IMG/VR virus record: IMGVR_UViG_3300022744_000027
Location: 1 to 64,000 of that record
DNA from: a virus
Lineage: Duplodnaviria > Caudoviricetes
Length of the DNA stretch: 64,000 bases
Strand: one strand, 5' to 3'
Below the pieces are notes generated by a model. That model was given only the letters and a program-made list of their open reading frames with translations, did no database searches and was not told the DNA's origin. Below are positions 27,322 through 40,508 of this stretch, piece by piece (position 1 is the first letter of the stretch; each line of letters begins with the position of its first letter). The position numbers and the translations under genes were made by a program.

Positions 27322-29939
27322 ACCGCAATGAACAACGGGCACCCGGGGTCGGTTTCGCGCACGCGAACACCATTCCGCTCGTTGCATCGCCCGTTATCGA
27401 ATGAAATACAGCGTCCGCACACGTCGCCGGACACCTGCAAAACCTCCTGAATGGCGTTGCTCAACGTCGGCGTGTACCGCTCAAGCACCACCTGCACCGA
27501 TGTCTCCTTGGGCTTTTCTGGCTCCGGCAGGATAAACATATTGGTGCCATACGCGCGGGCCCAAGCCACGTCGGCCAGCATATTTGCGTAGCTGGTGTGC
27601 GGGTCGATGCCGACTTTCACCACCCGGCGCTTAAACTTCTTCTCTTCCTCGTCCTTTTCCGCAATCAGCGCTGTGCGCGTGAAGTGGAAGAACGCGTACT
27701 CCTTGCACACAGCGGCCATCCGCCATTTGCCCTTCTCCAGAACCTCCTGCACCAGCCCATCGGGGTCAGGGAACAGGCAGAGCTTTTTCTGGAACCGGCC
27801 CATGGAAACCTGCATGCACTTGTACTGGTCGAGCGTGACGGTGTAGCGGTCCCGCAATTCCTCGTCGGTCCGGCGCTCGCTGGTGTCCAGCTTGGGCGCG
27901 TCTCCCCAGCGCAGCATGTCGCCTTCCATGTTGCCGTATCCGGCCAGGAACACGCGGCCGTCATGGCGGCGGGCAAACGACTTGGCGTTGTCGTAGTTTG
28001 GCAGCGTTTCCACCACGCAGCACTGCACACCATAGGTCGACATCAGCTCGTCGCACCGGTCCCATGGCGAGGCCTCGGGGTCGTCCTTCGTTGGCGCGCG
28101 GAAGATGTACTCCATGTGCAGCACGGCCTGGCGACCGTCTGGCAGCCGCTCCTTGATGATGGCCACAATAAAGGAGCCCATCTGGTCGAGCCCCATGAAG
28201 GTGCCCCTGCCGTTGCGCCGCCACTGGAGCCCGTACTCCACGCCCACGCGGGCGCACTCGTTGAGCATTTCCAGGTTCACCGGCACCTGTGACGGGTCGG
28301 TGTAGGGCTTGCCCAGCTTACGGTTAAAAAAGTTCTTCATGTCGTCGGCGTTGTGGTACGCCTCGATGATGTCCCGGGGGCTGATTGTGGGCGACAGGAA
28401 CTGCGGGAAGTGCACCGAGCGAATCTCGGCATCCGGCGCCTTTGCGATCCACTGGCCGATCTGCGGGTCGTCAATCCACCCTTGGCACGACACGCACCGG
28501 TAGCGGTACTCGCCACGGGCAGCGCCGCCCTCGCGCTGCAGCAGCCGCGGCGCATCGGCGTCGTAGCCGATACACTGGGGGAAGTTCTCGTCCAGCACCT
28601 GTAGCATCGCGCAGTGCGGGCACTCGGTGTGGAACTGGTGCTGGGTGCCCTTTTTGTACCAGAAGTGAATGTCGGAATCCGGCCAGTTGGCCGTGGAGCC
28701 CATGAGCGTGTACCGCAGCGCCGAGGCCGACATACGCTCGCGGGTTTTCTCCATGTCCGCGATTGCCATCTCCTGCACCTCGTCAAACGAGACGACATCC
28801 ATGGGGAAGGATTCGGTCGCGGTCTTGCCGGTGGTCCACAGGAAGTGAAACCGGGACGAACCCAAGTTGCGAATAAGGATGTTGCCCTCGCCGCCACGGC
28901 CGCCGGATGCCTGCTTCTCGGTCATCAGAGCGTACACGTCGGGTACCGTCCGCACGATGGGCATGAAGCGCTCGCTCGACTTGCCAGAGGCCAGCATCTG
29001 CGACGGCATAAACATGCCGATCTTGGCCGGCGAGAACCGCATGGCCAGGTAGATCATGGCCAGCATTTCCATAACGGTGAAGCCCACCTGGGTGCACTTC
29101 ATGATCACGTCGGTGCGGTTGAAGGCGTCCTCAATCGTGGCGGGGATGAGCTCGTAAATGAACCGCATCGCCGGGCGGTCGGACAGCGTGAATGGCCGGC
29201 CGTCAACCTTGAGCCCTTCGGCTTCCAGCCGCTCGCACCACTGCAGGAACGTCTCGCCGGGCTTGAGTGAGCGCTGCTCTTGGGTGAACTCGACGGCCAC
29301 ATCAAAGAACTCAGCACCAAACCGCTGGCGCTGCTCCAGCTCGGTACCCAGCGACGCGGCCAGGCGCGCCTCTTCGGGCAGGTGCGGATTGCAGAAGCTG
29401 TCGAATTGCCACACCGACCAGTCGGGGTCTGTCTGGCCGAGCCGGCACAGCCGGTAGAAGTCGTTGCGCTTGCCGAACGCCCCGGACAGGAACCATGCGT
29501 CGCCGTTGTAGACCTTCAGCATGGGGCGAAGCACGTCCTCCCACAGATTGAGCAGGCCCTCCACGAGCCGGGCGTCGTCCACCACGATCAGTCCGTATTG
29601 CTCGAACAGCTCTTGGGGCTTTTCCATGCTGTAGAAGTCAATGAACCCGCCGGACACCAGCTCCAGTCGGCGTGCATTTACGCGGCGCTTGATAAGCGGG
29701 TCGATGGCCCGCATCACCTGGCGGCGGGCCTCAATCATGGCGTCGTCGGTGGGTGAGAACCACGCCACCGGCTTCTTGCTGTTGAGCGCGCCCTTGGGGC
29801 TGGCAAGCAACACCTCGATGCCGAGCGTTGTCTTACCGAACTGCTCACCGGCGGCAACGGCGTTATACCGGCTGGCCCGCGCCAGCGCCTTCTGTTGCGC
29901 GGCGTGGGGGGTTGGGAGGGATATTTTTACTTTAGCCAT
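27318..29939 (-). CDS. Terminase large subunit (GpA-like) with an extra N-terminal terminase-type ATPase domain
   Basis: Domain 1: GEQFGKT...LIVVDDA. Domain 2: MKCTQVGFT...VSFDEV, ECPHC, CVSC, FFNRKLGKPY and nuclease MGLDQ. Confidence 0.9.
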   Translation of the reverse strand: MAKVKISLPTPHAAQQKALARASRYNAVAAGEQFGKTTLGIEVLLASPKGALNSKKPVAWFSPTDDAMIEARRQVMRAIDPLIKRRVNARRLELVSGGFIDFYSMEKPQELFEQYGLIVVDDARLVEGLLNLWEDVLRPMLKVYNGDAWFLSGAFGKRNDFYRLCRLGQTDPDWSVWQFDSFCNPHLPEEARLAASLGTELEQRQRFGAEFFDVAVEFTQEQRSLKPGETFLQWCERLEAEGLKVDGRPFTLSDRPAMRFIYELIPATIEDAFNRTDVIMKCTQVGFTVMEMLAMIYLAMRFSPAKIGMFMPSQMLASGKSSERFMPIVRTVPDVYALMTEKQASGGRGGEGNILIRNLGSSRFHFLWTTGKTATESFPMDVVSFDEVQEMAIADMEKTRERMSASALRYTLMGSTANWPDSDIHFWYKKGTQHQFHTECPHCAMLQVLDENFPQCIGYDADAPRLLQREGGAARGEYRYRCVSCQGWIDDPQIGQWIAKAPDAEIRSVHFPQFLSPTISPRDIIEAYHNADDMKNFFNRKLGKPYTDPSQVPVNLEMLNECARVGVEYGLQWRRNGRGTFMGLDQMGSFIVAIIKERLPDGRQAVLHMEYIFRAPTKDDPEASPWDRCDELMSTYGVQCCVVETLPNYDNAKSFARRHDGRVFLAGYGNMEGDMLRWGDAPKLDTSERRTDEELRDRYTVTLDQYKCMQVSMGRFQKKLCLFPDPDGLVQEVLEKGKWRMAAVCKEYAFFHFTRTALIAEKDEEEKKFKRRVVKVGIDPHTSYANMLADVAWARAYGTNMFILPEPEKPKETSVQVVLERYTPTLSNAIQEVLQVSGDVCGRCISFDNGRCNERNGVRVRETDPGCPLFIAV

Positions 29940-29991
29940 GTGCCAATGATAAAGCCCGCGCGAGGCGGGCTGTTGCGGGGATGCGGAACGG

Positions 29992-30729
29992 TCAGTCGTT
30001 CATCAAGTGGCCGGAGTGGGTCACCCATGCGCGAGACTCCGCGTCGTCGCCTTTGTGGGCGTACTCGTAAGACGCCTCGCCGGTCTTGTTGTTCTTGCCG
30101 GACTTGCCGGTGAACGAGAAAGTCTTGCCTTCATGGTGGACCGTGTGGTCGCCCTTGCCATTGCTAGGAGGCTCGAACCCGCCAACGTGATGCGTGGAGC
30201 CATCGTCCTTCTTGGCGGACAGCTTCTCGCTGGACTTCGCCTGCATCGGCCACTTTTCAGAGCCGACATTTACGGTCTTGGTGGGAGCGGCAGAGCCGGT
30301 CTTCTGGTCGGCCTTTTTCACAGGCAGCGCCAGGCGGGGCTCCGGCTTGGAGGCAGGAGCTGCATCCGTAGGCTTTTCGTCACCCGGCCGCACATGCTTG
30401 TAACCATTTCTACCCATGCGCTGCGAGTCGGCGCCATTGACCACGACATGGTATCCGTGATCGGGGTGCGACATAACAAAAGCACCACCCTTGGAGGAAG
30501 CGGCCCTATTAGCGAACCTGTGAGCAGCGCCAGACGTCGAGAACGCTGCCACACCTGACCGAGACTTTGCACCAGCGGAGACAGCATGAGCCACGGCCGG
30601 GTGCACAGGATCGGCAGCCGCTGCAACCCGCTTGTCGTCATGCGCCTGCACCACAACGCCATCTTTGCGTGTGTAGGAATCGACGTGAGACTTCAGCAGA
30701 TCAGCGCTGACGATAAGGATTTTTGACAT
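29992..30729 (-). CDS. Putative internal virion protein (basic, 245 aa)
   Basis: LLKS-HVDSYTRKDG N-terminal motif; late promoter and GGAG SD. Confidence 0.7.
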   Translation of the reverse strand: MSKILIVSADLLKSHVDSYTRKDGVVVQAHDDKRVAAAADPVHPAVAHAVSAGAKSRSGVAAFSTSGAAHRFANRAASSKGGAFVMSHPDHGYHVVVNGADSQRMGRNGYKHVRPGDEKPTDAAPASKPEPRLALPVKKADQKTGSAAPTKTVNVGSEKWPMQAKSSEKLSAKKDDGSTHHVGGFEPPSNGKGDHTVHHEGKTFSFTGKSGKNNKTGEASYEYAHKGDDAESRAWVTHSGHLMND

Positions 30730-30750
30730 GGTGGCTCCAGAATTCCCGAC

Positions 30751-30766
30751 AGTATGCGGTCACGAC
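30751..30766 (-). promoter_or_regulatory. Late promoter motif (leadered)
   Basis: GTCGTGAC-CG-CATACT-GTCGGG-A...GGAG...ATG(30729). Confidence 0.7.
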
Positions 30767-31101
30767 GCGCGCTGCGGGCGACCGGTGTAGGGGGCTGTGG
30801 GCTGGAGGCGGGCGTGGACGTTCCAGAATTGGTTGTAAGCCGAGTGCAGATCGTCATCGCGCACCGAATTTTTGAAGTTTTCGTACTGAATGCCCATGAT
30901 CTCAGCAGAGATAACCTCTGCAACACGGGCGCGAGGCAAAACAGCGCGAAACGCGTAGTCGGTATTGGTGGACTTAACCACCTTGCAACCAGGAAACACG
31001 GCCTCCAAGTCGCCGGGGCGACGAGCCCTGACAACTAACTCATTGGGCTTGCACCCCTTGTGCACGGCGCTGAAAAATCCACGGTTGGTACATATCCACA
31101 T
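30760..31101 (-). CDS. Hypothetical protein (113 aa)
   Basis: ATG 31101 with AGGAG SD; MWI.T..GF.S.V...VRAR...DL...TDY.FR...Y.NFK pattern. Confidence 0.75.
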   Translation of the reverse strand: MWICTNRGFFSAVHKGCKPNELVVRARRPGDLEAVFPGCKVVKSTNTDYAFRAVLPRARVAEVISAEIMGIQYENFKNSVRDDDLHSAYNQFWNVHARLQPTAPYTGRPQRAS

Positions 31102-31130
31102 GAGAACACTCCTAAAAAATTGGTGATGCA

Positions 31131-31151
31131 ATATTACATCAACAATTTTGC
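31131..31151 (-). promoter_or_regulatory. Early-type promoter/operator
   Basis: GCAAAATTGTTGA-TG-TAATAT-T-GCATC. Confidence 0.55.
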
Positions 31152-31165
31152 GGTGTGTCGCTCTT

Positions 31166-31981
31166 TCAAAACAATTTTTTACTTCCGGTCCACTTCGCCT
31201 GCGGCTGCGGCTCGGGCTTCTTGGGTGCCGGGCCAGCGCCAACAGCCTCAGCCACCGGGTGATCGGCGTGGCCATTCAAGAGCTCGTACAGGTTACCCTT
31301 GGGGCAGAGGTGCACGGCCTGTGTTTCCCAGCCTGCATCCGTGGGGTCGCCACCCACGCGCACGGCGCGGTACATGCGGGCCTTTGACGTGGTGCGGTCG
31401 AAGTCACCGATAAATCCGGTGATGCGAACGCGGAGCCCGACTTCCTCGAAGCACTCCTTCAGCGCATTCGCTTGCAGCGAGAGCCCCTTCTCCGCCGTGC
31501 CCTTGGGTAGCGTGGCGTGATACCCACCGAAGGCGTTTGTCGGCGCGCAGAGCCACACGCGGCCGTCCGGTTCTTCCACCACCACTCCAGCGCCAACGGA
31601 CTTGCCCTGGGCCACGTGGAACGCGGGCTCTTCGAGGTCGTCATTTATTCCGTCGCAGTAATCCCACCCCTCGGCGGTAGTCGGCGCATCGCGCCAGCGG
31701 CGAAACGGCACGCCGTTCAACTCGCGGGGCACGTCGCCACCAGGCACGAACGTGGCCACGGCGTCGGGGTTGTCCCAAGTGGACTCGGCCGACGGATGGT
31801 GCGGGGCCTTGACCAGCACGGCCTCGCCCTTTTCGCCCGGCTTCGGATGATGGTGCGGTGGCAGCGGCTCGTGGCCGTTGCGGTCATACGGGCGGACGTA
31901 GTGCTCGCCACGCATGTGCCCCTTGACGTGGGCCTTGGCGAGATCGTCGCCGAACTCCAGTACGGCATCAGTCATTGCCAA
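31166..31981 (-). CDS. Nudix hydrolase
   Basis: Nudix box PKGTAEKGLSLQANALKECFEEVGL; EPDGRVWL..PTNAFGGY. Confidence 0.9.
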   Translation of the reverse strand: MAMTDAVLEFGDDLAKAHVKGHMRGEHYVRPYDRNGHEPLPPHHHPKPGEKGEAVLVKAPHHPSAESTWDNPDAVATFVPGGDVPRELNGVPFRRWRDAPTTAEGWDYCDGINDDLEEPAFHVAQGKSVGAGVVVEEPDGRVWLCAPTNAFGGYHATLPKGTAEKGLSLQANALKECFEEVGLRVRITGFIGDFDRTTSKARMYRAVRVGGDPTDAGWETQAVHLCPKGNLYELLNGHADHPVAEAVGAGPAPKKPEPQPQAKWTGSKKLF

Positions 31982-32468
31982 CCACCCCCGTCAACGCCAT
32001 AGAAATCGACCGCACGGCCGCCACCAAGGTCTGCTCTGTTTCCTCTGCTGGCGCACCAGCGGACGCCTCGCGCAACAGGTCGTAGACCGAATGCACGAAC
32101 ACGGCGAATGCTTGGGCAACCAGCTGCACATCGTCCTCGTCCGGTACCAGCTCCCGCTCCATGCGATTGCGCAGGTGATCGGCCAGCTGCTTACCCGTCC
32201 AGTTGCGCACGGGCGCATAGGCGGGGTCCGCACCAGTGAACACCCCGGCGAGTTTCAGGCACTGCGCCCGGTCGGCTTCAGCGGCATCGCTTGGCGTGAG
32301 CACGCCGTGCCCCACCTCGTCAAACCGCGTGATTACCTCAGATGCGAAGCCGCGCACGATACGCTCGACCTCCCGAATGTCGCCCAGGAACGGGCGGCCA
32401 TCGGTGGCGGCCTTCAGGGACTCAAGAAGGCCGGATGGGTCGGTGTGGCGGTCAAGTTTGTCGGTCAT
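31968..32468 (-). CDS. Hypothetical helical protein (166 aa)
   Basis: Lies between the ART fusion and Nudix genes, tightly coupled. Confidence 0.75.
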   Translation of the reverse strand: MTDKLDRHTDPSGLLESLKAATDGRPFLGDIREVERIVRGFASEVITRFDEVGHGVLTPSDAAEADRAQCLKLAGVFTGADPAYAPVRNWTGKQLADHLRNRMERELVPDEDDVQLVAQAFAVFVHSVYDLLREASAGAPAEETEQTLVAAVRSISMALTGVVGND

Positions 32469-32475
32469 TTTTTAT

Positions 32476-35400
32476 TCACTCGGTTGGCAGAATAACAGCT
32501 TCGATCACGTGGCTTGACGATTTGCCAAACCCGTCCGCATCGCCGTCCTTGCCTTTTACAGACAGGATCATAAGGCGAGTTCCAGGCGGCAGGATCATCT
32601 CATCCTCGCCGGAGTTCGAAGATAAAGCACCACCACCAGCAATCGAGTGGTGCCCGACCCATAAACCCTTCACGCCGGGGCCCACGTGTAGCTTCAGGTG
32701 CACGTTTCCGTGCCACGAAGACGGACGGATCGACGTGGACATGATCGCTGGCTCCTGAAGAATTTTCCCCGAGGACTTCAGCAGCTGATCAAGGTCACTG
32801 CCGTGCAGCGAAATCTTGCGCGACAGGACAGTGCCCGGTGCAATATCATGCCCCAGCGTTTTCAAAGCCTCTCCGGCAGCCTTTGCCGCGCCGCTGGGGT
32901 TGCCATCCCACAGCGAGCCATTCATGGCTTTATACGAGCTGCCAGTGTAACTCTTGACCGCCTGCTTTTGCGTGGCGGGCATTTTTGCAATCGCGGCTTG
33001 GGCCTGTTTGGCATAGGTCTGAGCAGAAAGCGCGCCCCCACCCTCTGCGTGCTTGATTTTTTCCGGCAGGCCCAAATCCGCCAGATTCACCGCCCCGGGC
33101 TCGCCGAGCACAATAAACTTGCCGAGCTTTTGCGCGACAGAGCTGGAAGCCGGACCAGTAAACGCGGGGTACGCAGCATTCAGCGAGTGCAGCGGGTGGC
33201 CACCGTCAAACCTGAACTTCTTGGGCGGGTTTAGCTGGTAGTTGATCTCGTTGACGGCCTGCTGGGCGTAGCCCTTCACGTGCTGGCTCGGGTGCTCCAG
33301 CACAGGCTTCTCGCCGGTGACATGGCCGGTGTCCTTGTCGTAGACCTTGGCCTTCAGGCCTTTGATGGCGTCCAGGTCGCCCGTCTTGGCGGCGGCGAAA
33401 ACCGCCTGCACGGCTTCCTCGTTGGCTTTGTTGAGAAACTCCTTCGAGGACGGACCAGAGCTGCCATTGCCGCCCCAGTTGAGGAAGGACGGCGGCGCGC
33501 TAATGTCTTCGGGCTTGAAGACCGGGGCCTTCTTCTTCTTGACGGCTGCGGGAAACCGCTTCGCTAGGTCGGCTTTGCGGGCAATCAGCGTCTCGGCCAA
33601 CTTCGTCTTGGCTGCGGCATCGCCGGGCCCGTACTGGTTGACCATGGCGCGAATGGCCACGTCGCTGATGGCCAGCACCTTTGCCGCGCTGGCGGTCAGG
33701 TCGGCCTTGGTCATGCCCTTGAAGACAGACGCGGCCTGCGGGTTTTTGCCCGCGTCCAGCAGGGTGTCGAGCTCGTCCACCTTGGAGCCAAAAGGCTTCT
33801 TCTCGCCTTGGGCGCGGTATTCGAGCGAGCCACCGGCATCCACGCGGTGGGCCTTGCCGTCGGGGCCAACCTGCAGGTTGTCGTAGCCGAGGCCGACCAC
33901 GTCCCAGTTGCCCAGCCATGCGTCGACCGCGAAACCGGCCTGCGCGCCGTCAACCTTGGCAAGCGCGCCAGGAGTGGCGGCCTTTTTGATGTCCACCCAC
34001 TTTGAGGCAATCCCGACCTTGCCGCCCTTGGTGACCAGCACAGCGTCCTGGCTGGACAAGCCCGCGAGGGCGTACAGCTTGGCCGCGAGCACTTCGGACT
34101 TGGCGGTGTCGGCGTCGGCAGGGAATTTGCAGTACCACTCCTGCCCGCTTTGGTCTTTGAACTTGCCGCCGGGGTTGGAGCCGCCCTGCCCGCCGGTTTG
34201 AGCCCATCCGTCCATGGGGAGCATGCCGCCAGCGGAGATGGGGGCGGAGGCAGCTGGGGCCGCGGGAGCTGACGGAGCTGCGGGAGCGGCGGGCTTCGCA
34301 CCAACGCCACCCGTCATGGCGTCGATCAGCGCCTGAGCAACCTTTTTCGATGCGGGCTTTCCCTTCGATTCGTTGTCAATCCACGCCTGCAGGCCAGCAA
34401 CATCACCGGCCACTGCCATCGCTTTGAATTTGTCCTTGTTCCCGGTTGCTGTTTTTGCGGCAACGGAGGCCATGATCTTGATTGCGTGGCCTGGCTTGAG
34501 GGCTTTGGTGGATGGCGCCTGCACGGTGGCTGGGGCTGCAGGCTGGTACGACGGGTCGAGCTTTTGCAGCGCCGCATCTGGCGGGATGGGGTATCCCATC
34601 GCCTTCATCTGGGGGAGAATTTCGGCGAGCGTTTCGCCCGGAATGGTGTCGGGCTCGGAGAACGAGCCATCCGTCACGCCAAATTCAAACCCGTCATCGC
34701 CGCCTCCGGCGAGGTAATAACCTTTCCCGTCTTTCTCAAATTCCAGCGATGGGTTGCCATCTAGGCCGGGATTGGATGCCGAGTGGGCCCACCCACCCAT
34801 GCCGTCGTCCTGCTTGACCCAGTGCCCATTTTTGAACACCAGCATGCCGTCGGCGCCAGGCTTGGTGTCGCCTTCCTTGGGGCCCTGCTCCACGGTGGTG
34901 GGCGCGGCCTGGGAAGCCCGCTGAGGCTTCGTCCCAGCCAGCGCGTGCCCTTGCAGCTTGTGCGCTTTCTGCTGGGCTGCCTCCAAAGCGTCATCGTAGT
35001 CTTCGTCCGTTTGATTTTCTGCCGGCATACTCTCGTTCACGGCATCCATGAAGTATTCCATGGCGGCGTCCGGGTCGTGGTCCGTCAGCGCCTCGTAGGC
35101 CTCGGCCTGCGCCTTGGTTGGCACTTTCCCAGCGGAGATTGCGGCCTTCCACTCGCTGACGACGGGGTATGGGTCGGCGGCTGGCGGTGGCGGTACCGCA
35201 GACGCAGCCATCATCGACAAGGCGTGCGAGGCGGCGGTCTTGAGCGCGGGGTTTGCTGCGTTCTTTGCCAGCTGCTGCAGGGTCTCGGTTGAACCCGCTC
35301 CAATTGCATCCTTGAGCAGCTTGGACTCGGCGTCTGACAAGCCGTCCAGTGAGACGCCAGCGCCAGCCGGAGCGGGCTGCACAGGCACAGCAGCCGTCGC

Positions 35401-37017
35401 GCCCTCCACACCCAACCCAGCCAGGGCGGTCTGAGCCGTGAGCGCCTGCTTCTTGGCGTAGGTCTGCTTGGCTCCGGCCTTCGAGTCGATAAAGGCCTGC
35501 AGCCCGGCGGTGTCGCCAGCGAAGGCCATGGCCTCGATTTTTGCCAGCGCGGCGTTGTGGCTCTTGGCGTTGGTGTTTTCGGCGGGCAGCTTCAGCTTGA
35601 ACCACGGGATGGATTGCAGGTTCTGCAGCTGCTGGGCGGAGAGTGCGCCAGGGGTGGTGGCGGCCGGCTTTTGAGCAAGCAACGACGAAATGTAATCTTT
35701 GACCGACTGCTTTAGCCCAGCCTCTGGCGACATCCACTCCTCAAGCTCCGACCACTCACCCTTGGAGGCGAGCTTGTCAAACATGGCCTTAGAGCTGGGC
35801 GTCATCACGAACGCGCCGCCCTGCGTTTTCCAGTGGCCGTCCTTGAGTACCATCGTGGAGCCGTTTGCCCCGGGTTTTGTGTCGCCCTCTTTCGGACCGG
35901 TGTCAGTCACCTGCACACCCATGGCGCCTGCCACAGCGGCCATGGCAGCGGCAGCGCCGTGCCAGCCTTTGTCGAGCGCCTGCTTATGCGCGACCTTGAT
36001 GCCGTCGGCGTCGCCATTCATGGCGGAGTCGTGAGCCAGCTTTCCGGTTGGGGTAGACAGCGAAAAGCCCATCGCTCCATCACCGGGCAGGTCGGTGTGC
36101 GCGGCCTTTATTTCCTCGGGGGTCAGCTTTTTAACAGCCGACTCCACAAACGGCTTGGCCGTGCCTTTTTCGATAGCGGTATGCAGCGAGGACTTGGGGA
36201 TTGCGACGGTATTCTTCTGGCCGGGCACCTTGGCGCCCAGCTTATTCAGGTAATACTGGTCCTCGTTTTGGTTGTAGACCACCCACTTGCCGGCGTTCAT
36301 CTTCTCGTACTGGCTGGAGAACTCGAAGACGGTGCCGGTCGAAACATTTGCCTGCTTCTCAGCCAGAACCTTCTGCGCGTAGGCCACGATGTGCGGGTTG
36401 TGCGCGTTGTTGGCGATCACAGCCTCAAGCAAGTCATGCGACCCGGCGTCAATCGTGGCCTTGGTCTTGGGAGGGATTGGCGCAGAGGCGGCGGGCTCGG
36501 CTGGCTCCGCAGCCTTCGGTGCCAGGTGCTCAGGCAGTCCAGTCGGATGCGGGTCGGCGGGCTCGGCCACCTGGGCGGCGGCGTGGGTACCGGGTTTCTG
36601 GCCCGGGGTGACGGTGTGCGCAGAGCCGTGAAGACCAAGCAAGTGGTTGGCAATCTTCGCCAACTTCTGCCCATAGGTATTCGACCCAAACGACGCACCA
36701 ACGATGGCCGTCACATCACCAGCGTCAGACCACGCGCGCAGCTTTTCCAGCGCCTTATTGAAAACGGGCGCGTTCACATTCGAGTCCGGCAGCTTCAGCG
36801 CGGACCATTGGTCGTCGGTAAAGTGCGCGGCGGCCTCGTGGTGCCCGGCAGACTTGGGATGCGCGGCGACCGGCGCGCCCTTGGGGGCTGGTGCGTCGTG
36901 GGTGATCTTCCGCCACCGGGGAGGGTTGCCGTAAAGAGCGTACCCACCCTTATGGGCAATCGAGGTGCCGGTGCCGGGTCCGGATTTCAGCAGCAGGATG
37001 AGACGCGGTGTGTTCAT
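32476..37017 (-). CDS. Large multidomain protein: repeats, PI3/4K/HipA-like kinase and VIP2/Alt-like ADP-ribosyltransferase
   Basis: Kinase (~33550-34215): GGQGGSNPGG, WYCKF, SEVLA, NWDVVG..DN, RVDAGGSL. ART (~32476-33000): YTG.SY..MN, LSRK, MSTS, EDEMILP. Confidence 0.85.
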   Translation of the reverse strand: MNTPRLILLLKSGPGTGTSIAHKGGYALYGNPPRWRKITHDAPAPKGAPVAAHPKSAGHHEAAAHFTDDQWSALKLPDSNVNAPVFNKALEKLRAWSDAGDVTAIVGASFGSNTYGQKLAKIANHLLGLHGSAHTVTPGQKPGTHAAAQVAEPADPHPTGLPEHLAPKAAEPAEPAASAPIPPKTKATIDAGSHDLLEAVIANNAHNPHIVAYAQKVLAEKQANVSTGTVFEFSSQYEKMNAGKWVVYNQNEDQYYLNKLGAKVPGQKNTVAIPKSSLHTAIEKGTAKPFVESAVKKLTPEEIKAAHTDLPGDGAMGFSLSTPTGKLAHDSAMNGDADGIKVAHKQALDKGWHGAAAAMAAVAGAMGVQVTDTGPKEGDTKPGANGSTMVLKDGHWKTQGGAFVMTPSSKAMFDKLASKGEWSELEEWMSPEAGLKQSVKDYISSLLAQKPAATTPGALSAQQLQNLQSIPWFKLKLPAENTNAKSHNAALAKIEAMAFAGDTAGLQAFIDSKAGAKQTYAKKQALTAQTALAGLGVEGATAAVPVQPAPAGAGVSLDGLSDAESKLLKDAIGAGSTETLQQLAKNAANPALKTAASHALSMMAASAVPPPPAADPYPVVSEWKAAISAGKVPTKAQAEAYEALTDHDPDAAMEYFMDAVNESMPAENQTDEDYDDALEAAQQKAHKLQGHALAGTKPQRASQAAPTTVEQGPKEGDTKPGADGMLVFKNGHWVKQDDGMGGWAHSASNPGLDGNPSLEFEKDGKGYYLAGGGDDGFEFGVTDGSFSEPDTIPGETLAEILPQMKAMGYPIPPDAALQKLDPSYQPAAPATVQAPSTKALKPGHAIKIMASVAAKTATGNKDKFKAMAVAGDVAGLQAWIDNESKGKPASKKVAQALIDAMTGGVGAKPAAPAAPSAPAAPAASAPISAGGMLPMDGWAQTGGQGGSNPGGKFKDQSGQEWYCKFPADADTAKSEVLAAKLYALAGLSSQDAVLVTKGGKVGIASKWVDIKKAATPGALAKVDGAQAGFAVDAWLGNWDVVGLGYDNLQVGPDGKAHRVDAGGSLEYRAQGEKKPFGSKVDELDTLLDAGKNPQAASVFKGMTKADLTASAAKVLAISDVAIRAMVNQYGPGDAAAKTKLAETLIARKADLAKRFPAAVKKKKAPVFKPEDISAPPSFLNWGGNGSSGPSSKEFLNKANEEAVQAVFAAAKTGDLDAIKGLKAKVYDKDTGHVTGEKPVLEHPSQHVKGYAQQAVNEINYQLNPPKKFRFDGGHPLHSLNAAYPAFTGPASSSVAQKLGKFIVLGEPGAVNLADLGLPEKIKHAEGGGALSAQTYAKQAQAAIAKMPATQKQAVKSYTGSSYKAMNGSLWDGNPSGAAKAAGEALKTLGHDIAPGTVLSRKISLHGSDLDQLLKSSGKILQEPAIMSTSIRPSSWHGNVHLKLHVGPGVKGLWVGHHSIAGGGALSSNSGEDEMILPPGTRLMILSVKGKDGDADGFGKSSSHVIEAVILPTE

Positions 37018-37023
37018 CCGCGC

Positions 37024-37039
37024 ATTTTGAAGTCACGAC
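37024..37039 (-). promoter_or_regulatory. Late promoter motif
   Basis: GTCGTGAC-TT-CAAAAT-GCGCGG-ATG(37017). Confidence 0.75.
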
Positions 37040-37050
37040 GCGCGGCCGCG

Positions 37051-37371
37051 TCAGGCGACCGGCACGACCTTGCAGGTCTTCGCGCCGAACTGGACCTCCA
37101 CGTCCACGGCGAACACGCCAGACAGGCGGATCGGCGCGCGCTTGATGGACAGCGACTCGGCGTGCGTGAGCATGTCCACCGACCACTCGTACTCGGGCAT
37201 TTTTCGCGCCAGGCGCTTTGCCATCTTCATGGCCATGCCCTCGGTGGGGCGGATGGTGTAGATCATCCGGCGGCCGGGGTCTTGCGCGGGGAAGCCCGGG
37301 ATTACCACGAGGATGGTCGGGTACTTCCGGGGAGGCTTCTTTTCCTTGGGCGGGGCGGCGGTTTCAGCCAT
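37051..37371 (-). CDS. Hypothetical protein
   Basis: ATG 37371 with GGAGG SD. Confidence 0.65.
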   Translation of the reverse strand: MAETAAPPKEKKPPRKYPTILVVIPGFPAQDPGRRMIYTIRPTEGMAMKMAKRLARKMPEYEWSVDMLTHAESLSIKRAPIRLSGVFAVDVEVQFGAKTCKVVPVA

Positions 37372-37642
37372 GCGACCTCCCGAGGTTGTACCAGTGGGCG
37401 GCATTGGCCGAGACGTGACCGCCGCACCCCAGGCATCGCCACTTTGCGCTGATCCGGGCCGGGTCTTCGCACTCGAAGTCGTGGCGCGGGCACGTATTCA
37501 GCATGGCGTTGTTGGCCTTCACCTCGTCCCAGATTTCCTGCATGGCAGCGCGGCTCAAGCCGACGACCGAGCCCAGGTTGTCAAGGGAATCAGCCACGCA
37601 AACACTCCCGGAGCGCCCGGTGTGCGCCCTGAACTCGAACAA
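37364..37642 (-). CDS. Small Zn-binding hypothetical protein
   Basis: CPRH...CLGC; start uncertain. Confidence 0.55.
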   Translation of the reverse strand: MFEFRAHTGRSGSVCVADSLDNLGSVVGLSRAAMQEIWDEVKANNAMLNTCPRHDFECEDPARISAKWRCLGCGGHVSANAAHWYNLGRSHG

Positions 37643-37716
37643 CCAGCGCGAAAGCCACGCCAGCCAAGGCGCGGCGCACGCAGGTCGAATGACTTAGGAT
37701 CATCGGGAGGGCCACA

Positions 37717-38328
37717 TCACAGCACCACCCAGTCGATGGCCAGCATGTCAGACTGGCTAGCGAGCCAGCCCATCAGAATCTCGCCCGTTGCGGTCTTCAT
37801 GGTGATGCAGGGCAGCACGGTGGCAAAACCGCCGTTTTCCTCGGCATAGGCGCGGTTGTTTTCGCTCCAGAAAGATGCCGCGGGGATGCTGCGGGCGAGA
37901 GTGAATGGACCGGAGGACGCGGGTGCAGACAGTGAAAGCCACATGCCCTTGCCATTCCAGCCAGCACGCGCAACGCGGTGGCCCGCCTTCAGGGCGCGGA
38001 TCGCGTCGCCGAAGTCGAGCGAGCGAACAGCGCCATCCGCCGTCTCAACCAGCGTGTATCCGGACTCAAACGCGCCAGCTGGCGACCAGGACTGGTAGCC
38101 GTCCTCGTAGACGACGAGGTAGCCGCCAACGAGCAAGTCGGCATCACCCAGAACATCCGGGCAATGCTTAGCAACCCATGACGCCTGCACCTCGTGCGGG
38201 GCAAACCGCTCGTCCTCGAAGTGCAACTCGAAACCGCGCGGGTTCGGGATCACGGCCTTGATTTTCAGGGCCGACACCCGCTTGTGGGACTGGTAGCGCG
38301 GCAGGGCGCGCAGGAACGCTGCGCTCAT
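37717..38328 (-). CDS. Tad2-like (DUF2829) domain fused to an N-terminal YEDGYQSWSP domain
   Basis: FGDAIRALKAGHRVARAGWNGKGMWL...PCITMKTA...GWLASQSDMLAIDW. Confidence 0.85.
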   Translation of the reverse strand: MSAAFLRALPRYQSHKRVSALKIKAVIPNPRGFELHFEDERFAPHEVQASWVAKHCPDVLGDADLLVGGYLVVYEDGYQSWSPAGAFESGYTLVETADGAVRSLDFGDAIRALKAGHRVARAGWNGKGMWLSLSAPASSGPFTLARSIPAASFWSENNRAYAEENGGFATVLPCITMKTATGEILMGWLASQSDMLAIDWVVL

Positions 38329-38651
38329 ACGGCACCCCCTGCAGCCAGTCGATCACGCAGGGCGTAGCCCATGAGGGGCCACAACTCAGAGCGGGCGTTG
38401 TCGATGGCCACCTGCTCACCGATCTCGGCGCGGTCGTTTTCAGGCGACACGCTGACGGACGGGCGGCCTGTGACGGCGTAACCGCTTCGAGTCGTGAGAA
38501 CGGCCCAGCGCAGCACCTGGCCGCTCTGGCTGACGTGCTTCACGATCTCGGTGTGCACGATGTTTGCCGCCAGATCGGCTGGTGTGACGCGCGGAGCGGT
38601 CGCGCCAAGCGCCACGACGCGGGCCTCAATGGCCTGGTCGGCCGCGCTCAT
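38325..38651 (-). CDS. Phage_gp49_66-family protein (Acb4-like sponge)
   Basis: APRVTPADL...VLTTRSGYAVTG.PS..VSPEN..AEIG..VA..NA..ELWPLMGYAL; ATG 38651. Confidence 0.75.
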   Translation of the reverse strand: MSAADQAIEARVVALGATAPRVTPADLAANIVHTEIVKHVSQSGQVLRWAVLTTRSGYAVTGRPSVSVSPENDRAEIGEQVAIDNARSELWPLMGYALRDRLAAGGAV

Positions 38652-39071: not shown

Positions 39072-40508
39072 TCAGAACGGCTGGCCGTCGTCCTCGTCGG
39101 GCGCGGGCTCGGTGAGGTCAGCCGGAGCGCGCACCTCGCCATCGCGGGGGAACGGCTCGCCGGTCACGGCGTGCACAGCCTTGCGGCCGGTCAGCATCTC
39201 CCAGCGGCGCACGGCCACGTCCACGAACTTGGGGTCCAGCTCTGAGACGCGGGCGATCAGGCCCATGCGGTCGGCGGCAATCATCGTGGTACCGGAACCC
39301 GAGAACCAGTCGATCACGACGTCGCCCGGGCGGCTGGACGGCTTCATCAGCTTCTCCCACAGGCCCACGGGTTTGGTGGTGGGGTGCAGCTCGGAGCGCG
39401 AAGGCTTGTCGTGGTAGATGACCGAGCCGGGCACTTCCTCGATGGTCGCCTGGCCGTCCACCACCAGCACGGTGTCGCCGACGGTGATGGCCCAGCGGCC
39501 GTCGTCCAGCTTTCGCACGGGGCCGGACTCGCCGTAATCGACCACGGTGGTGCGCTTGCGGCCGCCGTACCAACGGTGAGCGGCGCCGGGTTTCCACCCG
39601 TACAGGATGGGCTCGTGCTGCCACTGGTAGTCGGAGCGACCGAGCACCAAGGAATTCTTGCGCCAGATCAGGCAGCCGGACAGCTTGAAGCCGGTGGAGC
39701 GGAAGGCGTCGCGGAAGTTCAAGCCCTCGGTGTCGGCGTGGGCAACGTAGATCGGCGCGCCGGGCTTCATGACCGTGAACATGGTCGCGTACCACGAGCC
39801 CAGCATCCGCCGGAATTCGGCATCGGCCATGTTGTCGTTCTTGATCGACCCAGCCAGCTTGGACTCGTAGGCCACGTTGTAAGGCGGATCGGTGACGCAC
39901 AGGTCGGCCATTTCGCCCTGCATGAGCTTGTCGATCAGGCCGGCATCGGAGCAGTCACCGCACAGGATGCGGTGGGGACCGCACACCCAAACGTCGCCCA
40001 AACGCGAGTGCGGCACGTCCGGCGTGGGTGGCACGGCATCGGGGTCGCCGCCACCCTCGGGAGGCTCAGGATCGACCATGCCCTCGAACAGCTTGGCCAG
40101 GTCTTCCTCGGCAAAGCCGGTGTACAGCTCGAGGTCGTAGCCAGCGGCGCGCAGGTCGTCGGTTTCGAGTTTCAGCATGTCAAGGTTCCAGGACGCGCCA
40201 GTTTCCGCGCTCCTGTTGTCCATGATCACGTAGGCTCGCCGGTCGATTTCCGACAGGTGGCTGATGTCGATGCACGGAACCCGCTCAAGCCCCAGCTTCT
40301 TTGCCGCCATCACGCGGCCATGTCCTGCGATGATCGTGCCGTCGGCAACGAGGCAGGGGTTGGTCCAGCCAAACCGCTCGATGCTGCCAGCGATTATTTC
40401 GATTTGAGCCGGACTGTGGTCCTTGGAATTTCGGGCGTATGGCAGCAAAGCCGCCACGGGAAGGAACTGAACCTTCATGTCTTCAGGCTGCTTGATGGGC
40501 GCGTTCAT
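39072..40508 (-). CDS. ParB-like N-domain plus N4/N6 DNA methyltransferase
   Basis: PYARNS..H, AGHGR; TDPPYN, HPTTKP, DWFSGSGTT. Confidence 0.92.
   Translation of the reverse strand: MNAPIKQPEDMKVQFLPVAALLPYARNSKDHSPAQIEIIAGSIERFGWTNPCLVADGTIIAGHGRVMAAKKLGLERVPCIDISHLSEIDRRAYVIMDNRSAETGASWNLDMLKLETDDLRAAGYDLELYTGFAEEDLAKLFEGMVDPEPPEGGGDPDAVPPTPDVPHSRLGDVWVCGPHRILCGDCSDAGLIDKLMQGEMADLCVTDPPYNVAYESKLAGSIKNDNMADAEFRRMLGSWYATMFTVMKPGAPIYVAHADTEGLNFRDAFRSTGFKLSGCLIWRKNSLVLGRSDYQWQHEPILYGWKPGAAHRWYGGRKRTTVVDYGESGPVRKLDDGRWAITVGDTVLVVDGQATIEEVPGSVIYHDKPSRSELHPTTKPVGLWEKLMKPSSRPGDVVIDWFSGSGTTMIAADRMGLIARVSELDPKFVDVAVRRWEMLTGRKAVHAVTGEPFPRDGEVRAPADLTEPAPDEDDGQPF

Follow-up and report, generated by a model that had tools for sequence, protein, structure and literature searches.

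A kinase-ADP-ribosyltransferase fusion protein with a linked Nudix hydrolase and a predicted active-site-binding partner beside the terminase gene of a tailed phage

Gene organization and the linked Nudix hydrolase

The window, i.e., the whole stretch of 64,000 nucleotides analyzed here, contains a four-gene cassette on the minus strand a short way upstream of the large terminase gene. As shown in Table 1, the cassette encodes a 1513-aa protein, a 166-aa protein, a Nudix hydrolase, and a 113-aa protein, and the ORF list and translations confirmed this gene set, which had been proposed in an earlier, sequence-only reading. Two effector domains are joined in one polypeptide of this portal-terminase phage; i.e., a kinase-like domain and an ADP-ribosyltransferase (ART) domain lie in the single ORF of the 1513-aa protein. 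Downstream of this ORF, on the same strand, are the genes for the large terminase, the portal, and the major head protein, and a Tad2-like Thoeris anti-defense gene (Pfam, E = 1.1e-22) is located two genes upstream. The 1513-aa gene begins 33 nt past the preceding ORF. The Nudix ORF encodes 271 aa if begun at TTG 31981 and 269 aa from ATG 31975, and with the latter start the gene overlaps the stop codon of the 166-aa gene in the sequence ATGA.

Table 1. Genes, domains, and sequence features of the cassette and its flank (positions in the window)
Feature	Position	Strand	Basis
1513-aa polyvalent protein gene (P0001)	32476..37017, stop codon included	-	ORF list and translation
N-terminal region, aa 1-924, variable	34246..37017	-	Pfam scan; motif positions
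Atypical kinase-like domain, aa 925-1170	33508..34245	-	AF2 model, Foldseek, VIA-align, invariant columns
Conserved middle domain, no family assigned, aa 1171-1330	33028..33507	-	Conserved columns; HMM co-occurrence
Putative R-S-ExE ADP-ribosyltransferase domain, aa 1331-1513	32479..33027	-	Pfam, PHROG, PDB profile, conservation
166-aa helical protein gene, predicted ART active-site binder	31968..32468	-	ORF list; homologues; complex prediction
Nudix hydrolase gene, 269 aa from ATG 31975	31166..31975	-	Sequence; Pfam NUDIX
Near-perfect palindrome TGATGtAATATTgCATCA, possible operator	31124..31142	.	Within the 64-nt gap ahead of the 113-aa gene
113-aa protein gene, conserved fourth gene	30760..31101	-	Sequence; 64-nt gap precedes
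245-aa protein gene, variable slot ahead of the terminase	29992..30729	-	Regex motif match; Nudix HMM match

Neither the single late promoter that had been placed ahead of the 1513-aa gene nor the early-type promoter assigned to the 113-aa gene was found. A scan of positions 29800-38600 with a sigma-70-like consensus gave two sites, both on the plus strand, where 1.2 are expected by chance, and the 17-nt stretch directly upstream of the 1513-aa gene recurs in the window only as one match with three mismatches. Because no promoter was found for the cassette, its description as a late operon derives from its place beside the terminase gene rather than from observation. The gap upstream of the 113-aa gene holds a near-perfect palindrome, which occurs as a single copy in the window (0 chance matches expected) and possibly serves as an operator.

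Gene linkage was surveyed in 65 IMG/VR loci that extend 3 kb or more downstream, 52 of which carry this ART and 13 of which carry the kinase without this ART. A Nudix gene is located downstream in 50 of the 52 ART loci and in none of the 13 others; the surveyed loci belong to related phages, and these co-occurrence counts may reflect few evolutionary events. The HMM of the 166-aa protein matches 35 of the 52 ART loci, and an iterated search over separately chosen loci with both ART and Nudix placed a 166-aa homologue between them in 48 of 54. The full cassette is present in all five isolates examined. In one locus (L075), a single ORF fuses MuF, Nudix, kinase, and ART domains, and Nudix-kinase fusions occur in four loci. 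Two carriers, L073 and L074, have a different ART family and no Nudix gene nearby. The association of Nudix and ART genes suggested by the sequence-only reading thus holds in related phages.

The canonical Nudix box is Gx5Ex7REUxEExGU, and the corresponding box of the cassette protein (Pfam NUDIX, PF00293, E = 1e-10, 42.2 bits against a cut-off of 21.1) is G-x2-[ED]-x2-[LIM]-x7-[KR]-E-x2-E-E-x-G-[LIM]. The three core glutamates are invariant in 54 of 56 homologues, which are those matching the box pattern; the first glutamate of the box is replaced by Leu, Ile, or Met in 51 of these 54, and an acidic residue is found three positions earlier in all 54. The protein is 46% identical (E = 1e-81) to gp131, a "particle associated protein" of Yersinia phage fHe-Yen8-01. 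The NCBIfam matches are Nud_hyd_Dein (E = 4.7e-6), under its cut-off, and NudE (E = 0.085), far under its cut-off. An N-terminal extension of approximately 115 aa holds a motif shared with neighboring proteins. The 245-aa protein has this motif (LLKSHVxxYTRKDGxxVxAHDD; 38 regex matches versus 0.6 in shuffles) in its N-terminus and is matched by the Nudix HMM at aa 10-102 (E = 1.2e-6), and no family was found for it with Pfam, PHROG, and a further family search. The role of "eraser" of ADP-ribosylation that had been proposed for the Nudix hydrolase is not supported: among solved proteins, the nearest by sequence is an Ap4A hydrolase (E = 0.011), followed by a MutT/Nudix family protein (E = 0.059), both weak matches and neither an ADP-ribose pyrophosphatase, and Nudix enzymes are not known to strip protein-linked ADP-ribose fully.

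The Nudix hydrolase may instead be an independent counter-defense enzyme, packaged or made to destroy NAD caps or immune signals of the dinucleotide or ADP-ribose-derived kind, which stands beside the ART only as a fellow virion-cargo gene and neither erases nor safeguards ART marks. A 2022 survey, in its available text, makes the case that the Macro, NADAR, and Nudix proteins of phages are directed chiefly against low-molecular-weight ADPr signals and are frequently packaged (PMC9503650), and the Tad2-like gene upstream, the identity of the closest solved relatives, and the N-terminal module common to unrelated neighboring proteins point in the same direction. On the other hand, the gene follows this ART type almost without exception and is absent downstream of the kinase in all 13 loci without this ART, the two functions share one polypeptide with MuF and kinase in L075, and the start codon overlaps the stop codon of the gene for the putative ART partner. 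We consider an independent role to be rather unlikely.

Domains of the 1513-aa protein and their proposed virion context

The 1513-aa protein has 493 homologues at E ≤ 0.001 among 8000 candidates scored. The motifs on which a kinase-ART fusion had been proposed are all in place, i.e., GGQGGSNPGG at aa 942, WYCKF at 961, SEVLA at 974, GNWD at 1036, YDN at 1045, VDAGG at 1059, LSRK at 1398, MSTS at 1426, and EDEM at 1471, and the fusion itself is confirmed by a fold and catalytic residues that fit a PI3/4K/HipA-like kinase and, at the C-terminus, by an ART of the R-S-ExE type. In the N-terminal region (aa 1-924), no Pfam family was matched; the motif GPKEGDTKPG..HW appears twice (aa 374 and aa 712), and a self-BLAST gave no longer internal repeat. 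WGR domains are found in the N-terminal region of 10 of 35 relatives.

The AF2 model of the kinase-like domain (pLDDT 94.7, pTM 0.91) takes the shape of a bilobal kinase fold. Foldseek returned CtkA as the top match for it (E = 7.5e-7, TM = 0.60) and 102 matches at E ≤ 0.001, those listed being kinases or phosphotransferases, in keeping with an atypical kinase fold. CtkA also ranked first in VIA-align, with Z = 15.9, rmsd = 3.5, and 205 residues aligned; CotH (Z = 13.8), MavQ (12.8), PI4KIIalpha (12.6), HipA (11.5), and HipT came next. The conserved residues are the Gly loop (946-951), Lys964, Glu975, Asp1032, Asn1037, Asp1039, Asp1046, Asn1047, Arg1058, and Asp1060, and among these the Gly loop, Lys964, Glu975, Asp1039, Asn1047, and Asp1060 are shared by all, or by at least 90%, of the 35 aligned sequences. 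By analogy, the ATP-binding Lys and Glu, catalytic Asp and Asn, and metal-binding Asp were assigned, which is the arrangement of HipA/CtkA/PI3-4K kinases having the same fold (Z = 15.9 to 10). The domain is widespread, with 4677 cluster representatives at E ≤ 0.001. Pfam HipA_C (PF07804) did not match the 1513-aa protein at E ≤ 0.1; it matched 2 of 35 relatives at E ≤ 0.001 (best, 4.6e-5), and its scores in L081 (25.7 bits) and L068 (18.1 bits) are under the gathering cut-off of 30.5 bits. In contrast to HipA, the domain has neither the HipA N-terminal domain nor a HipB-like partner and is embedded in a putative virion effector.

Structural neighbors also include lipid kinases (MavQ, PI4KIIalpha, Vps34, and PI3K), the sugar kinase NahK, and aminoglycoside phosphotransferases, which would suit an enzyme that is not a protein kinase and whose substrate is a small molecule resembling an antibiotic or belonging to the lipids, sugars, or nucleotides. 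However, the entry titles of the best match, CtkA, and of CotH, HipA, HipT, actin-fragmin kinase, and Fam20C name protein kinases, and these proteins are known as such; the fold alone does not decide the substrate, and a small-molecule kinase seems unlikely to us.

Judging from its sequence, the C-terminus is a Vip2/Alt-type R-S-ExE ADP-ribosyltransferase. It was matched by Pfam ADPrib_exo_Tox (PF03496, E = 1.1e-7, 31.8 bits against a cut-off of 23.4) and by PHROG families of Alt-like ART (E = 1.5e-7) and exoenzyme toxins, and its profile matched Lmo0066 (6.3e-11), Vip2 (1.7e-10), SpvB (3.4e-7), VsdC, Vis, CdtA, and iota toxin in the PDB. The motifs Arg1400, Ser1427-Thr-Ser1429, and Glu1471-Asp-Glu1473, which are kept in all, or in at least 90%, of 27 aligned sequences, align onto those of Lmo0066 and Vip2. 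The HMM of the middle domain, which lies between kinase and ART, co-occurs with the ART HMM across loci.

No Pfam MuF or known head-targeting domain was detected in the 1513-aa protein or in five large neighboring ORFs of the morphogenesis region, and MuF is present in 1 of the 35 members of the kinase homologue alignment. Among more distant carriers of the kinase domain, 9 of the 11 scanned have an N-terminal MuF head domain, which places the 1513-aa protein with polyvalent, virion-delivered effectors. In relatives, MuF is combined with a kinase, ART, Zeta toxin, or Nudix domain, and in the Gordonia phage Phendrix the gene carrying the kinase domain directly follows the portal gene. In the record of fHe-Yen8-01, gp129 (the ART), gp130, and gp131 are annotated as "particle associated"; this label is not very selective, since 8 of the 14 listed features, including the large terminase, carry it, and no publication behind the labels was found. 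We infer that the 1513-aa protein is packaged and injected.

The 166-aa and 113-aa proteins

The 166-aa protein has 52 homologues and no informative family, and searches of Pfam, PHROG, and further family and structure collections gave no match to a known immunity family. It is 36% identical (E = 3e-32) to gp130 of fHe-Yen8-01. The sequence-only reading had suggested that it is a partner of the large protein, and complex prediction agrees with this: it places the 166-aa protein at the active site of the ART with a median score of 0.74 (runs of 0.70, 0.86, and 0.74), versus 0.00 for the best of three controls, on a scale whose mark is reached by 58 of 80 solved complexes and by 2 of 110 mismatched pairs, a calibration that is rough here, own alignments having been supplied. 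The pLDDT of the partner is 85-88, and at least 83% of the contacts are common to the runs. The predicted interface includes Arg1400, Ser1427-Ser1429, Glu1471, and Glu1473, lies in large part on the middle domain (residues 321-393 of the modeled chain), and excludes the kinase domain. No solved relative of the 166-aa protein was found, so the score is unlikely to reflect memory of a like complex.

The bulk of this interface is on the non-catalytic middle domain, the gp130 homologue has the "particle associated" label, and the protein belongs to no known immunity family, all of which could indicate an assembly chaperone or packaging adaptor of the giant protein whose contact with the catalytic site is incidental. 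Such a role appears improbable, as the predicted interface takes in the arginine, the STS motif, and both glutamates of the ExE motif, and active-site occlusion is described, in the accessible part of the source, as the prevalent mode of small proteins encoded after such toxins (PMC11699363).

The 113-aa protein has 61 distinct homologues in 79 loci and gave a confident AF2 model (pLDDT 92.6), for which no solved fold above Z = 4.1 was found. Of the 52 loci with this ART, 51 have the 113-aa gene, as do 11 of the 13 kinase loci that lack the ART; i.e., the gene goes along with giant proteins bearing the kinase whether or not they have this ART.

Relation to known systems and proposed role

The closest tested precedent for the cassette is, by analogy, Bxa of a Bacteroides stercoris prophage, an ART for which one binding and one enzymatic immunity protein were shown experimentally (PMC11699363, which cites Apk2-Tis1-Aph1 as a system analogous to Bxa-Bsi-BAH). 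The likeness is in the layout, i.e., a phage ART toxin followed by a small non-enzymatic protein and an adjacent hydrolase gene. Occlusion of the active site by the small protein was both modeled and tested for Bxa-Bsi in the available account (PMC11699363), whereas for the 166-aa protein it is predicted. Like Bxa, relatives of the 1513-aa protein carry MuF, although the 1513-aa protein itself has no detectable MuF domain. The cassette differs from Bxa in its additional kinase-like warhead and in that homologues of its partners are labeled particle associated in a relative. Its hydrolase is a Nudix protein and not an ARH1-like ADP-ribosylhydrolase as in Bxa, and full reversal of the mark is therefore not expected.

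The R-S-ExE ART of phage T4 Alt, which is packaged in the virion and injected, resembles that of the cassette, and both are proposed to be delivered together with the DNA; the genome context differs, and packaging of the 1513-aa protein is presumptive. T4 Alt is a single-domain protein of approximately 680 aa without a fused kinase, and to our knowledge no cognate inhibitor or Nudix partner has been described for it. As in polyvalent and MuF-fused phage effectors described in PMC5512222, PMC9503650, and PMC5576092, as far as their available text goes, several effector domains are combined in a giant polypeptide encoded beside the terminase and portal genes. The polyvalent-protein kinase reported in 2017 is of the truncated Ser/Thr/Tyr-kinase type and comes mainly from Verrucomicrobia-Chlamydia and Bacteroidetes (PMC5512222), whereas the kinase here is of the HipA/CtkA/PI4K type and occurs in proteobacterial and actinobacterial phages, a comparison made with the main text of that paper, the supplement of which may list it. 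ARTs of the family discussed beside T4 Alt were, according to the same text, not then found in genuine polyvalent proteins (PMC5512222). HopAG1 of Pseudomonas syringae had been put forward as a combination of ART, kinase, and Nudix domains; the ART and Nudix are described (PMC9963460), and a kinase domain was not found in the accessible literature on HopAG1. It is thus like the cassette in combining ART and Nudix, and the two differ in that HopAG1 is one fused effector injected into plants by type III secretion, while the ART and Nudix of the cassette are separate phage genes.

The least probable alternative, which we regard as very doubtful, takes the cassette to be a polymorphic toxin that the phage carries along with immunity genes, comparable to Bxa or temperate-phage MuF toxins; lysogens or phage-plasmids would turn it on bacterial competitors or on superinfecting phages, and it would not serve the takeover of a newly infected cell. 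This reading would account for a homologue on a 5.35-Mb Kaistia contig, others on Salmonella contigs of approximately 101 kb, the MuF of relatives, the prediction in the available text that the relative Touem01, which has a ParA-like gene, is temperate (PMC11256456), and the toxin, small binder, and hydrolase layout equal to that of Bxa-Bsi-BAH, but in fHe-Yen8-01 the partners are labeled particle associated together with the toxin, unlike immunity proteins retained in the cell, and the two models are not mutually exclusive.

In the reading that we prefer, the 1513-aa protein would be a polyvalent effector that a Dolphis-like myovirus carries in its virion, and in which a variable N-terminal region carries two warheads, a HipA/CtkA/PI4K-like kinase and an Alt/Vip2-type, arginine-directed (ExE) ART. 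Made beside the terminase-portal module, the giant protein would enter the particle and hit host molecules at the onset of the next infection; the enzyme activities and targets are putative, as is the substrate of the Nudix hydrolase. The Nudix hydrolase would be linked to the ART arm, with material derived from NAD or ADP-ribose as its substrate. It would serve either as a safeguard that works enzymatically, as the second immunity protein of Bxa does, or as a helper delivered together with the ART. The 113-aa protein may belong to the kinase arm, and its function as a regulator or inhibitor of the kinase is a guess. The translationally coupled 166-aa protein would be the cognate partner, sitting on the middle domain and over the catalytic residues of the ART, which would thereby be kept silent in the producing cell, and it probably goes into the particle with the giant protein. 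We hold this combination of a virion-carried kinase-ART effector with a 166-aa inhibitor, an ART-linked Nudix hydrolase, and a kinase-linked 113-aa protein to be somewhat likelier right than wrong. As a separate point, an inhibitor co-packaged in equal amounts would leave the release of the ART after injection unexplained.

The idea of a combined write/erase module is less new than it had seemed, as the available parts of PMC5512222 and PMC9503650 already predict polyvalent effectors and the packaging of Alt/VIP2 ARTs and of Nudix enzymes in virions, and the Bxa precedent exists. The kinase-ART fusion, with its predicted plug, Nudix hydrolase, and fourth gene, is a variation on known virion-carried phage effectors.

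Domain composition of the kinase-ART protein

The 1513-residue product of the minus-strand gene (the giant protein) contains a kinase-like domain (residues 925 to 1170), a middle domain (residues 1171 to 1330), and a C-terminal ADP-ribosyltransferase (ART) domain (residues 1331 to 1513), and the motifs quoted for it in the sequence-only reading are all present where they had been placed. The ART domain matches Pfam ADPrib_exo_Tox above the cut-off and both the exoenzyme-toxin and the Alt-like ART families of PHROG, and a profile built from 35 relatives matches the solved ARTs Lmo0066 (6.3e-11), Vip2, SpvB, VsdC, Vis, CdtA, and iota toxin. Residues R1400, S1427-T-S1429, and E1471-x-E1473 are conserved among the homologues. 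A phmmer search of the PDB with the whole giant protein gave nothing informative, and self-BLAST found no internal repeats.

The kinase-like domain has no Pfam family and no sequence match in the PDB. Its model, predicted from a 35-row alignment (pLDDT = 94.7, pTM = 0.91), has H. pylori CtkA as the top Foldseek match (E = 7.5e-7, TM = 0.60), followed by other kinases. In a fold search independent of Foldseek, the Z-scores are 15.9 for CtkA, 13.8 for CotH, 12.8 for MavQ, and 12.6 for PI4KIIalpha, with lower values for HipA (11.5), HipT (10.2), and actin-fragmin kinase (10.1). The Gly loop, K964, E975, D1032, N1037, D1039, D1046/N1047, R1058, and D1060 show little or no variation among the aligned sequences. 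The fold matches and the conserved residues thus support the label of PI3/4K/HipA-like kinase as to the predicted fold and the probable activity.

Cluster representatives with the domain number 4677 at E ≤ 0.001 and 1090 at E ≤ 1e-30; the carriers reach 7004 aa and in some cases hold several copies. Among 35 carriers, the Pfam domains are WGR (10), the ART of the giant protein (9), DRAT (2), HipA_C (2), and single instances of MuF, ART-PolyVal, and NAD:arginine ART. Thirteen IMG/VR loci have the kinase without this type of ART; in the 11 scanned, the carrier has an N-terminal MuF domain in nine, a different ART family in three, and a Zeta toxin in two. MuF, Nudix, kinase, and ART are united in a single ORF of 2043 aa at one of these 11 loci (L075), and a Nudix-kinase fusion gene, encoding a Nudix protein with a kinase-like domain of its own at the C-terminus, occurs at four other loci (L054, L058, L063, and L083). 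In the Gordonia phage Phendrix, the kinase carrier directly follows the portal gene. On the basis of these architectures, the MuF domains, and the portal adjacency, the kinase family is grouped with the virion effectors of the polyvalent or MuF-linked kind (PMC5512222, PMC9503650). The giant protein and the neighboring ORFs scanned in the window show no MuF domain.

Gene order and the partner proteins

The features of the region are listed in the table below; beyond the large terminase gene, in the downstream direction, come the portal and major head genes.

Features of the cassette and its surroundings
Feature	Position	Strand	Remarks
ParB-like nuclease domain fused to DNA methyltransferase	39072-40508	-	
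Tad2-like (Thoeris anti-defence 2) gene	37717-38328	-	Pfam E = 1.1e-22; two genes upstream of the ART gene
Small ORF, zinc-finger-like CxxH...CxxC spacing	about 37368-37542	-	Read from sequence only; its end, ATGGCTGA, overlaps the start codon that the 117-aa ORF probably uses
Likely true start of the ORF listed as 117 aa	ATG 37371		Preceded by GGGAGG
Small ORFs	between Tad2-like and 1513-aa genes	-	From ORF order
1513-aa gene	37017-32476	-	From ORF list
166-aa gene	32468-31968	-	Begins 7 nt past the 1513-aa gene
Nudix gene	31975-31166	-	ATG overlaps the stop of the 166-aa gene as ATGA; shared peptide at aa 12-30
Near-perfect palindrome TGATGtAATATTgCATCA	31124-31142		In the AT-rich 64-nt gap before the 113-aa gene; unique in the window
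113-aa gene	31101-30760	-	After the 64-nt gap
245-aa gene	30729-29992	-	Between the 113-aa gene and the terminase; shared peptide at aa 13-34
Terminator-like hairpin	29953-29971	-	7 pairs, 6 G-C; between the 245-aa gene and the terminase
Large terminase	29939-27318	-	phrog_675, E = 5.6e-93
1516-aa SNF2/DEAD-type helicase-like protein	10260-14810	-	Between portal and major head genes; phrog_62, E = 3.5e-203

Since the Tad2-like gene lies near the ART gene, the region holds several NAD/ADP-ribose-related functions. The promoters proposed for the cassette were not recovered: the consensus scan found no sigma-70-like site on the coding strand from 29800 to 38600, and the sequence upstream of the 1513-aa gene, where a late promoter had been placed, is not a recurring motif. 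The palindrome looks like an operator, and the hairpin could divide the cassette from the packaging operon. Terminator-like sites are no commoner than in shuffled sequences (14 found, 10.3 expected).

The 117-aa ORF shows no similarity to gp128 of the Yersinia phage fHe-Yen8-01, and it is not homologous to gp116 of phage Dolphis. The helicase-like protein may be a second large virion-associated protein. In the relatives, the counterpart of the 39072-40508 region (far ends of L001 and L002) bears annotations for adenylosuccinate synthase, DNA methyltransferase, and PAPS reductase, a hint of a DNA-modification module.

The Nudix protein matches Pfam NUDIX above the cut-off. The box pattern fitted 54 of 56 homologues, and in these 54 the core glutamates of the Nudix box are invariant; 51 of the 54 have a hydrophobic residue in place of the first box glutamate. 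Among proteins of solved structure, the closest in sequence are an Ap4A hydrolase and a MutT-like protein, both at weak E-values, so that the sequence does not indicate a substrate. The 113-aa protein has 61 distinct homologues within the 79 loci surveyed and a confident model (pLDDT = 92.6), for which the best Z-score against PDB representatives is 4.1; the fold has two unnamed viral matches in BFVD at E ≤ 0.001, and the Atlas search returned unnamed clusters only. In fHe-Yen8-01, the homologue is gp132, and gp133, also considered, shows no similarity.

A peptide of about 25 aa, LxK[AS]HVxGYT[RK]xDGxxVxPHD, is found near the N-terminus of several proteins of the cassette region, including the Nudix and 245-aa proteins, and also heads other, unrelated ORFs around the cassette. 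It recurs in L002 (9419-9790), in ORFs of L008, L013, L033, and L055, and in gp116 of Dolphis and Jeremy (46% identity over 41 aa, E = 5e-7), and the corresponding regular expression gives 38 matches compared with 0.6 in shuffled sequences. The peptide may act as a shared signal for docking or virion targeting. By BLASTP, the 245-aa protein has no significant match to the Nudix protein, although the Nudix HMM does match it. The by-eye impression that the peptide also forms the N-terminus of the giant protein was dropped, because an HMM of 32 instances matched the first 60 residues of none of 121 homologues.

Conservation, possible virion association, and the predicted complex

The source viral record has 76,805 bases (G+C about 62%) and is estimated to be 83% complete. 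Nucleotide similarity is limited to the Pseudomonas putida phages Jeremy and Dolphis (73-74% identity, 12-18% of the query). A tblastn search with the kinase region returned 20 phage records, i.e., those of three Pseudomonas phages, Aeromonas ST4, Yersinia fHe-Yen8-01, E. coli ECML-606-1, Enterobacter phiT5282EW, and Morganella Mecenats66, together with one Actinomycetia phage and 11 Gordonia records. Hosts among the relatives include Pseudomonas putida and E. coli. Mecenats66 (PMC9503643) and Touem01 (PMC11256456) are myoviruses of about 86-92 kb by record length; by term counts, ADP-ribosyl, kinase, and Nudix are absent from the main text of the former paper, and ADP-ribosyl and Nudix from that of the latter.

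When IMG/VR was scanned with the kinase alignment, 395 stretches matched; the best 80 of them represent 79 loci, to which custom HMMs were applied, and the following counts are for the 65 loci that continue for 3 kb or more past the kinase ORF. The anticipated linkage of Nudix to ART genes in related phages is borne out: the 52 loci with this ART have a Nudix gene downstream in 50, a match to the 166-aa HMM in 35, and a 113-aa homologue in 51 (48 downstream and 3 elsewhere), compared with 0, 0, and 11 of the 13 loci without it, counts that are not independent events because the phages are related. L073 and L074, which carry another ART family, are without Nudix. In a second set of 54 differently chosen loci having both ART and Nudix, an iterated search of only the in-between ORF found a 166-aa homologue in 48, with E-values that relate to a tiny database. 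At all 16 loci missed by the first 166-aa HMM, an ORF of about 160-260 aa fills this position between the two genes. The whole cassette is present in all five isolates checked.

In the record of fHe-Yen8-01, the ART is annotated as "phage particle associated protein", and gp130 (homologous to the 166-aa protein; 36% identity, E = 3e-32) and gp131 (homologous to the Nudix protein; 46% identity, E = 1e-81) as "particle associated protein"; gp132 is without such a label. We treat the label as a lead to packaging: it is given to 8 of the 14 listed features, including the large terminase, and we found no publication on this phage that stands behind it.

The 166-aa protein has 52 homologues and no informative family: NCBIfam gave nothing above the cut-offs, PADLOC matched 0 families, the Atlas contained no usable match, and a profile search of the PDB returned only designed proteins with no passing stretch. 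A complex of this protein with residues 925 to 1513 of the giant protein was predicted from our own alignments, with scores of 0.70, 0.86, and 0.74 (median 0.74) compared with 0.00 for all three controls. The pLDDT of the 166-aa partner is 85-88, and at least 83% of the contacts are common between runs. In calibration, the mark was reached by 58 of 80 solved complexes and 2 of 110 mismatched pairs, which is only a rough guide here because our own alignments were used. The predicted interface includes the middle domain, R1400, the STS motif, E1471, and E1473, with the kinase domain outside it; in this prediction, the 166-aa protein would be an active-site plug of the ART.

Precedents and proposed role

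Bxa is a prophage MuF-ART toxin neutralized by Bsi, which binds Bxa and is modeled in its active site, and by BAH, an ARH1-like hydrolase (PMC11699363); it is the closest experimental precedent of the cassette. Unlike Bxa, the giant protein has a fused HipA/CtkA-like kinase and no detectable MuF, the hydrolase of the cassette is a Nudix enzyme instead of an ARH hydrolase, and the partners are possibly co-packaged. Packaged Alt/VIP2 ARTs and packaged Nudix enzymes have already been predicted (PMC9503650), and polyvalent proteins with a different kinase type were described earlier in PMC5512222, the online files of which may list this domain. The effector HopAG1, named as a parallel in the sequence-only reading, does combine ART and Nudix; a kinase domain was not found in the passages on it that were searched. 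We found no paper joining HipA-like proteins, phage, ADP-ribosyltransferase, and virion, or the CtkA/HipA kinase domain with phage polyvalent proteins. The new elements are the kinase family in a virion-effector setting, the plug predicted for the active site, and a four-gene layout that is conserved. The sequence-only reading of a candidate injected write/erase module was largely right in its observations and partly right in its interpretation, and is less novel than it had been rated.

The best fit to the data is a virion-carried effector with two warheads, in which the ART arm has a cognate plug, as predicted, and a linked hydrolase. A more elaborate version, which we consider unlikely, makes the cassette a self-contained, safety-locked injection weapon of kinase-ART, plug, Nudix, 113-aa lock, and targeting peptide. 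The kinase-ART protein would enter the capsid inhibited, in complex with the 166-aa plug, and passage through the tail would part the two, so that arming of the ART would wait until the next host is reached. The Nudix enzyme packaged with it would then trim the ADP-ribose marks of the ART to phosphoribose, beyond removal by host erasers, or else would destroy alarm signals derived from ADP-ribose at time zero. For the kinase, the 113-aa protein would serve as the corresponding lock, and the short N-terminal peptide LxKAHVxGYTRKDGxxVxPHD of the Nudix and neighboring cargo proteins would be a new virion-targeting signal.

The cassette is a compact set of four genes, each component of which is testable in laboratory hosts. 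If the predicted plug and the Nudix enzyme act as proposed, the dual-immunity logic of Bxa would extend to lytic-type myoviruses, which raises the question of how a co-packaged inhibitor is shed on injection. The giant protein is also a candidate HipA-type kinase from a phage. Its kinase-like domain, paired here with an Alt/Vip2-type ART, is very common in the virion effectors of phages, yet it is unnamed and has no Pfam family of its own.
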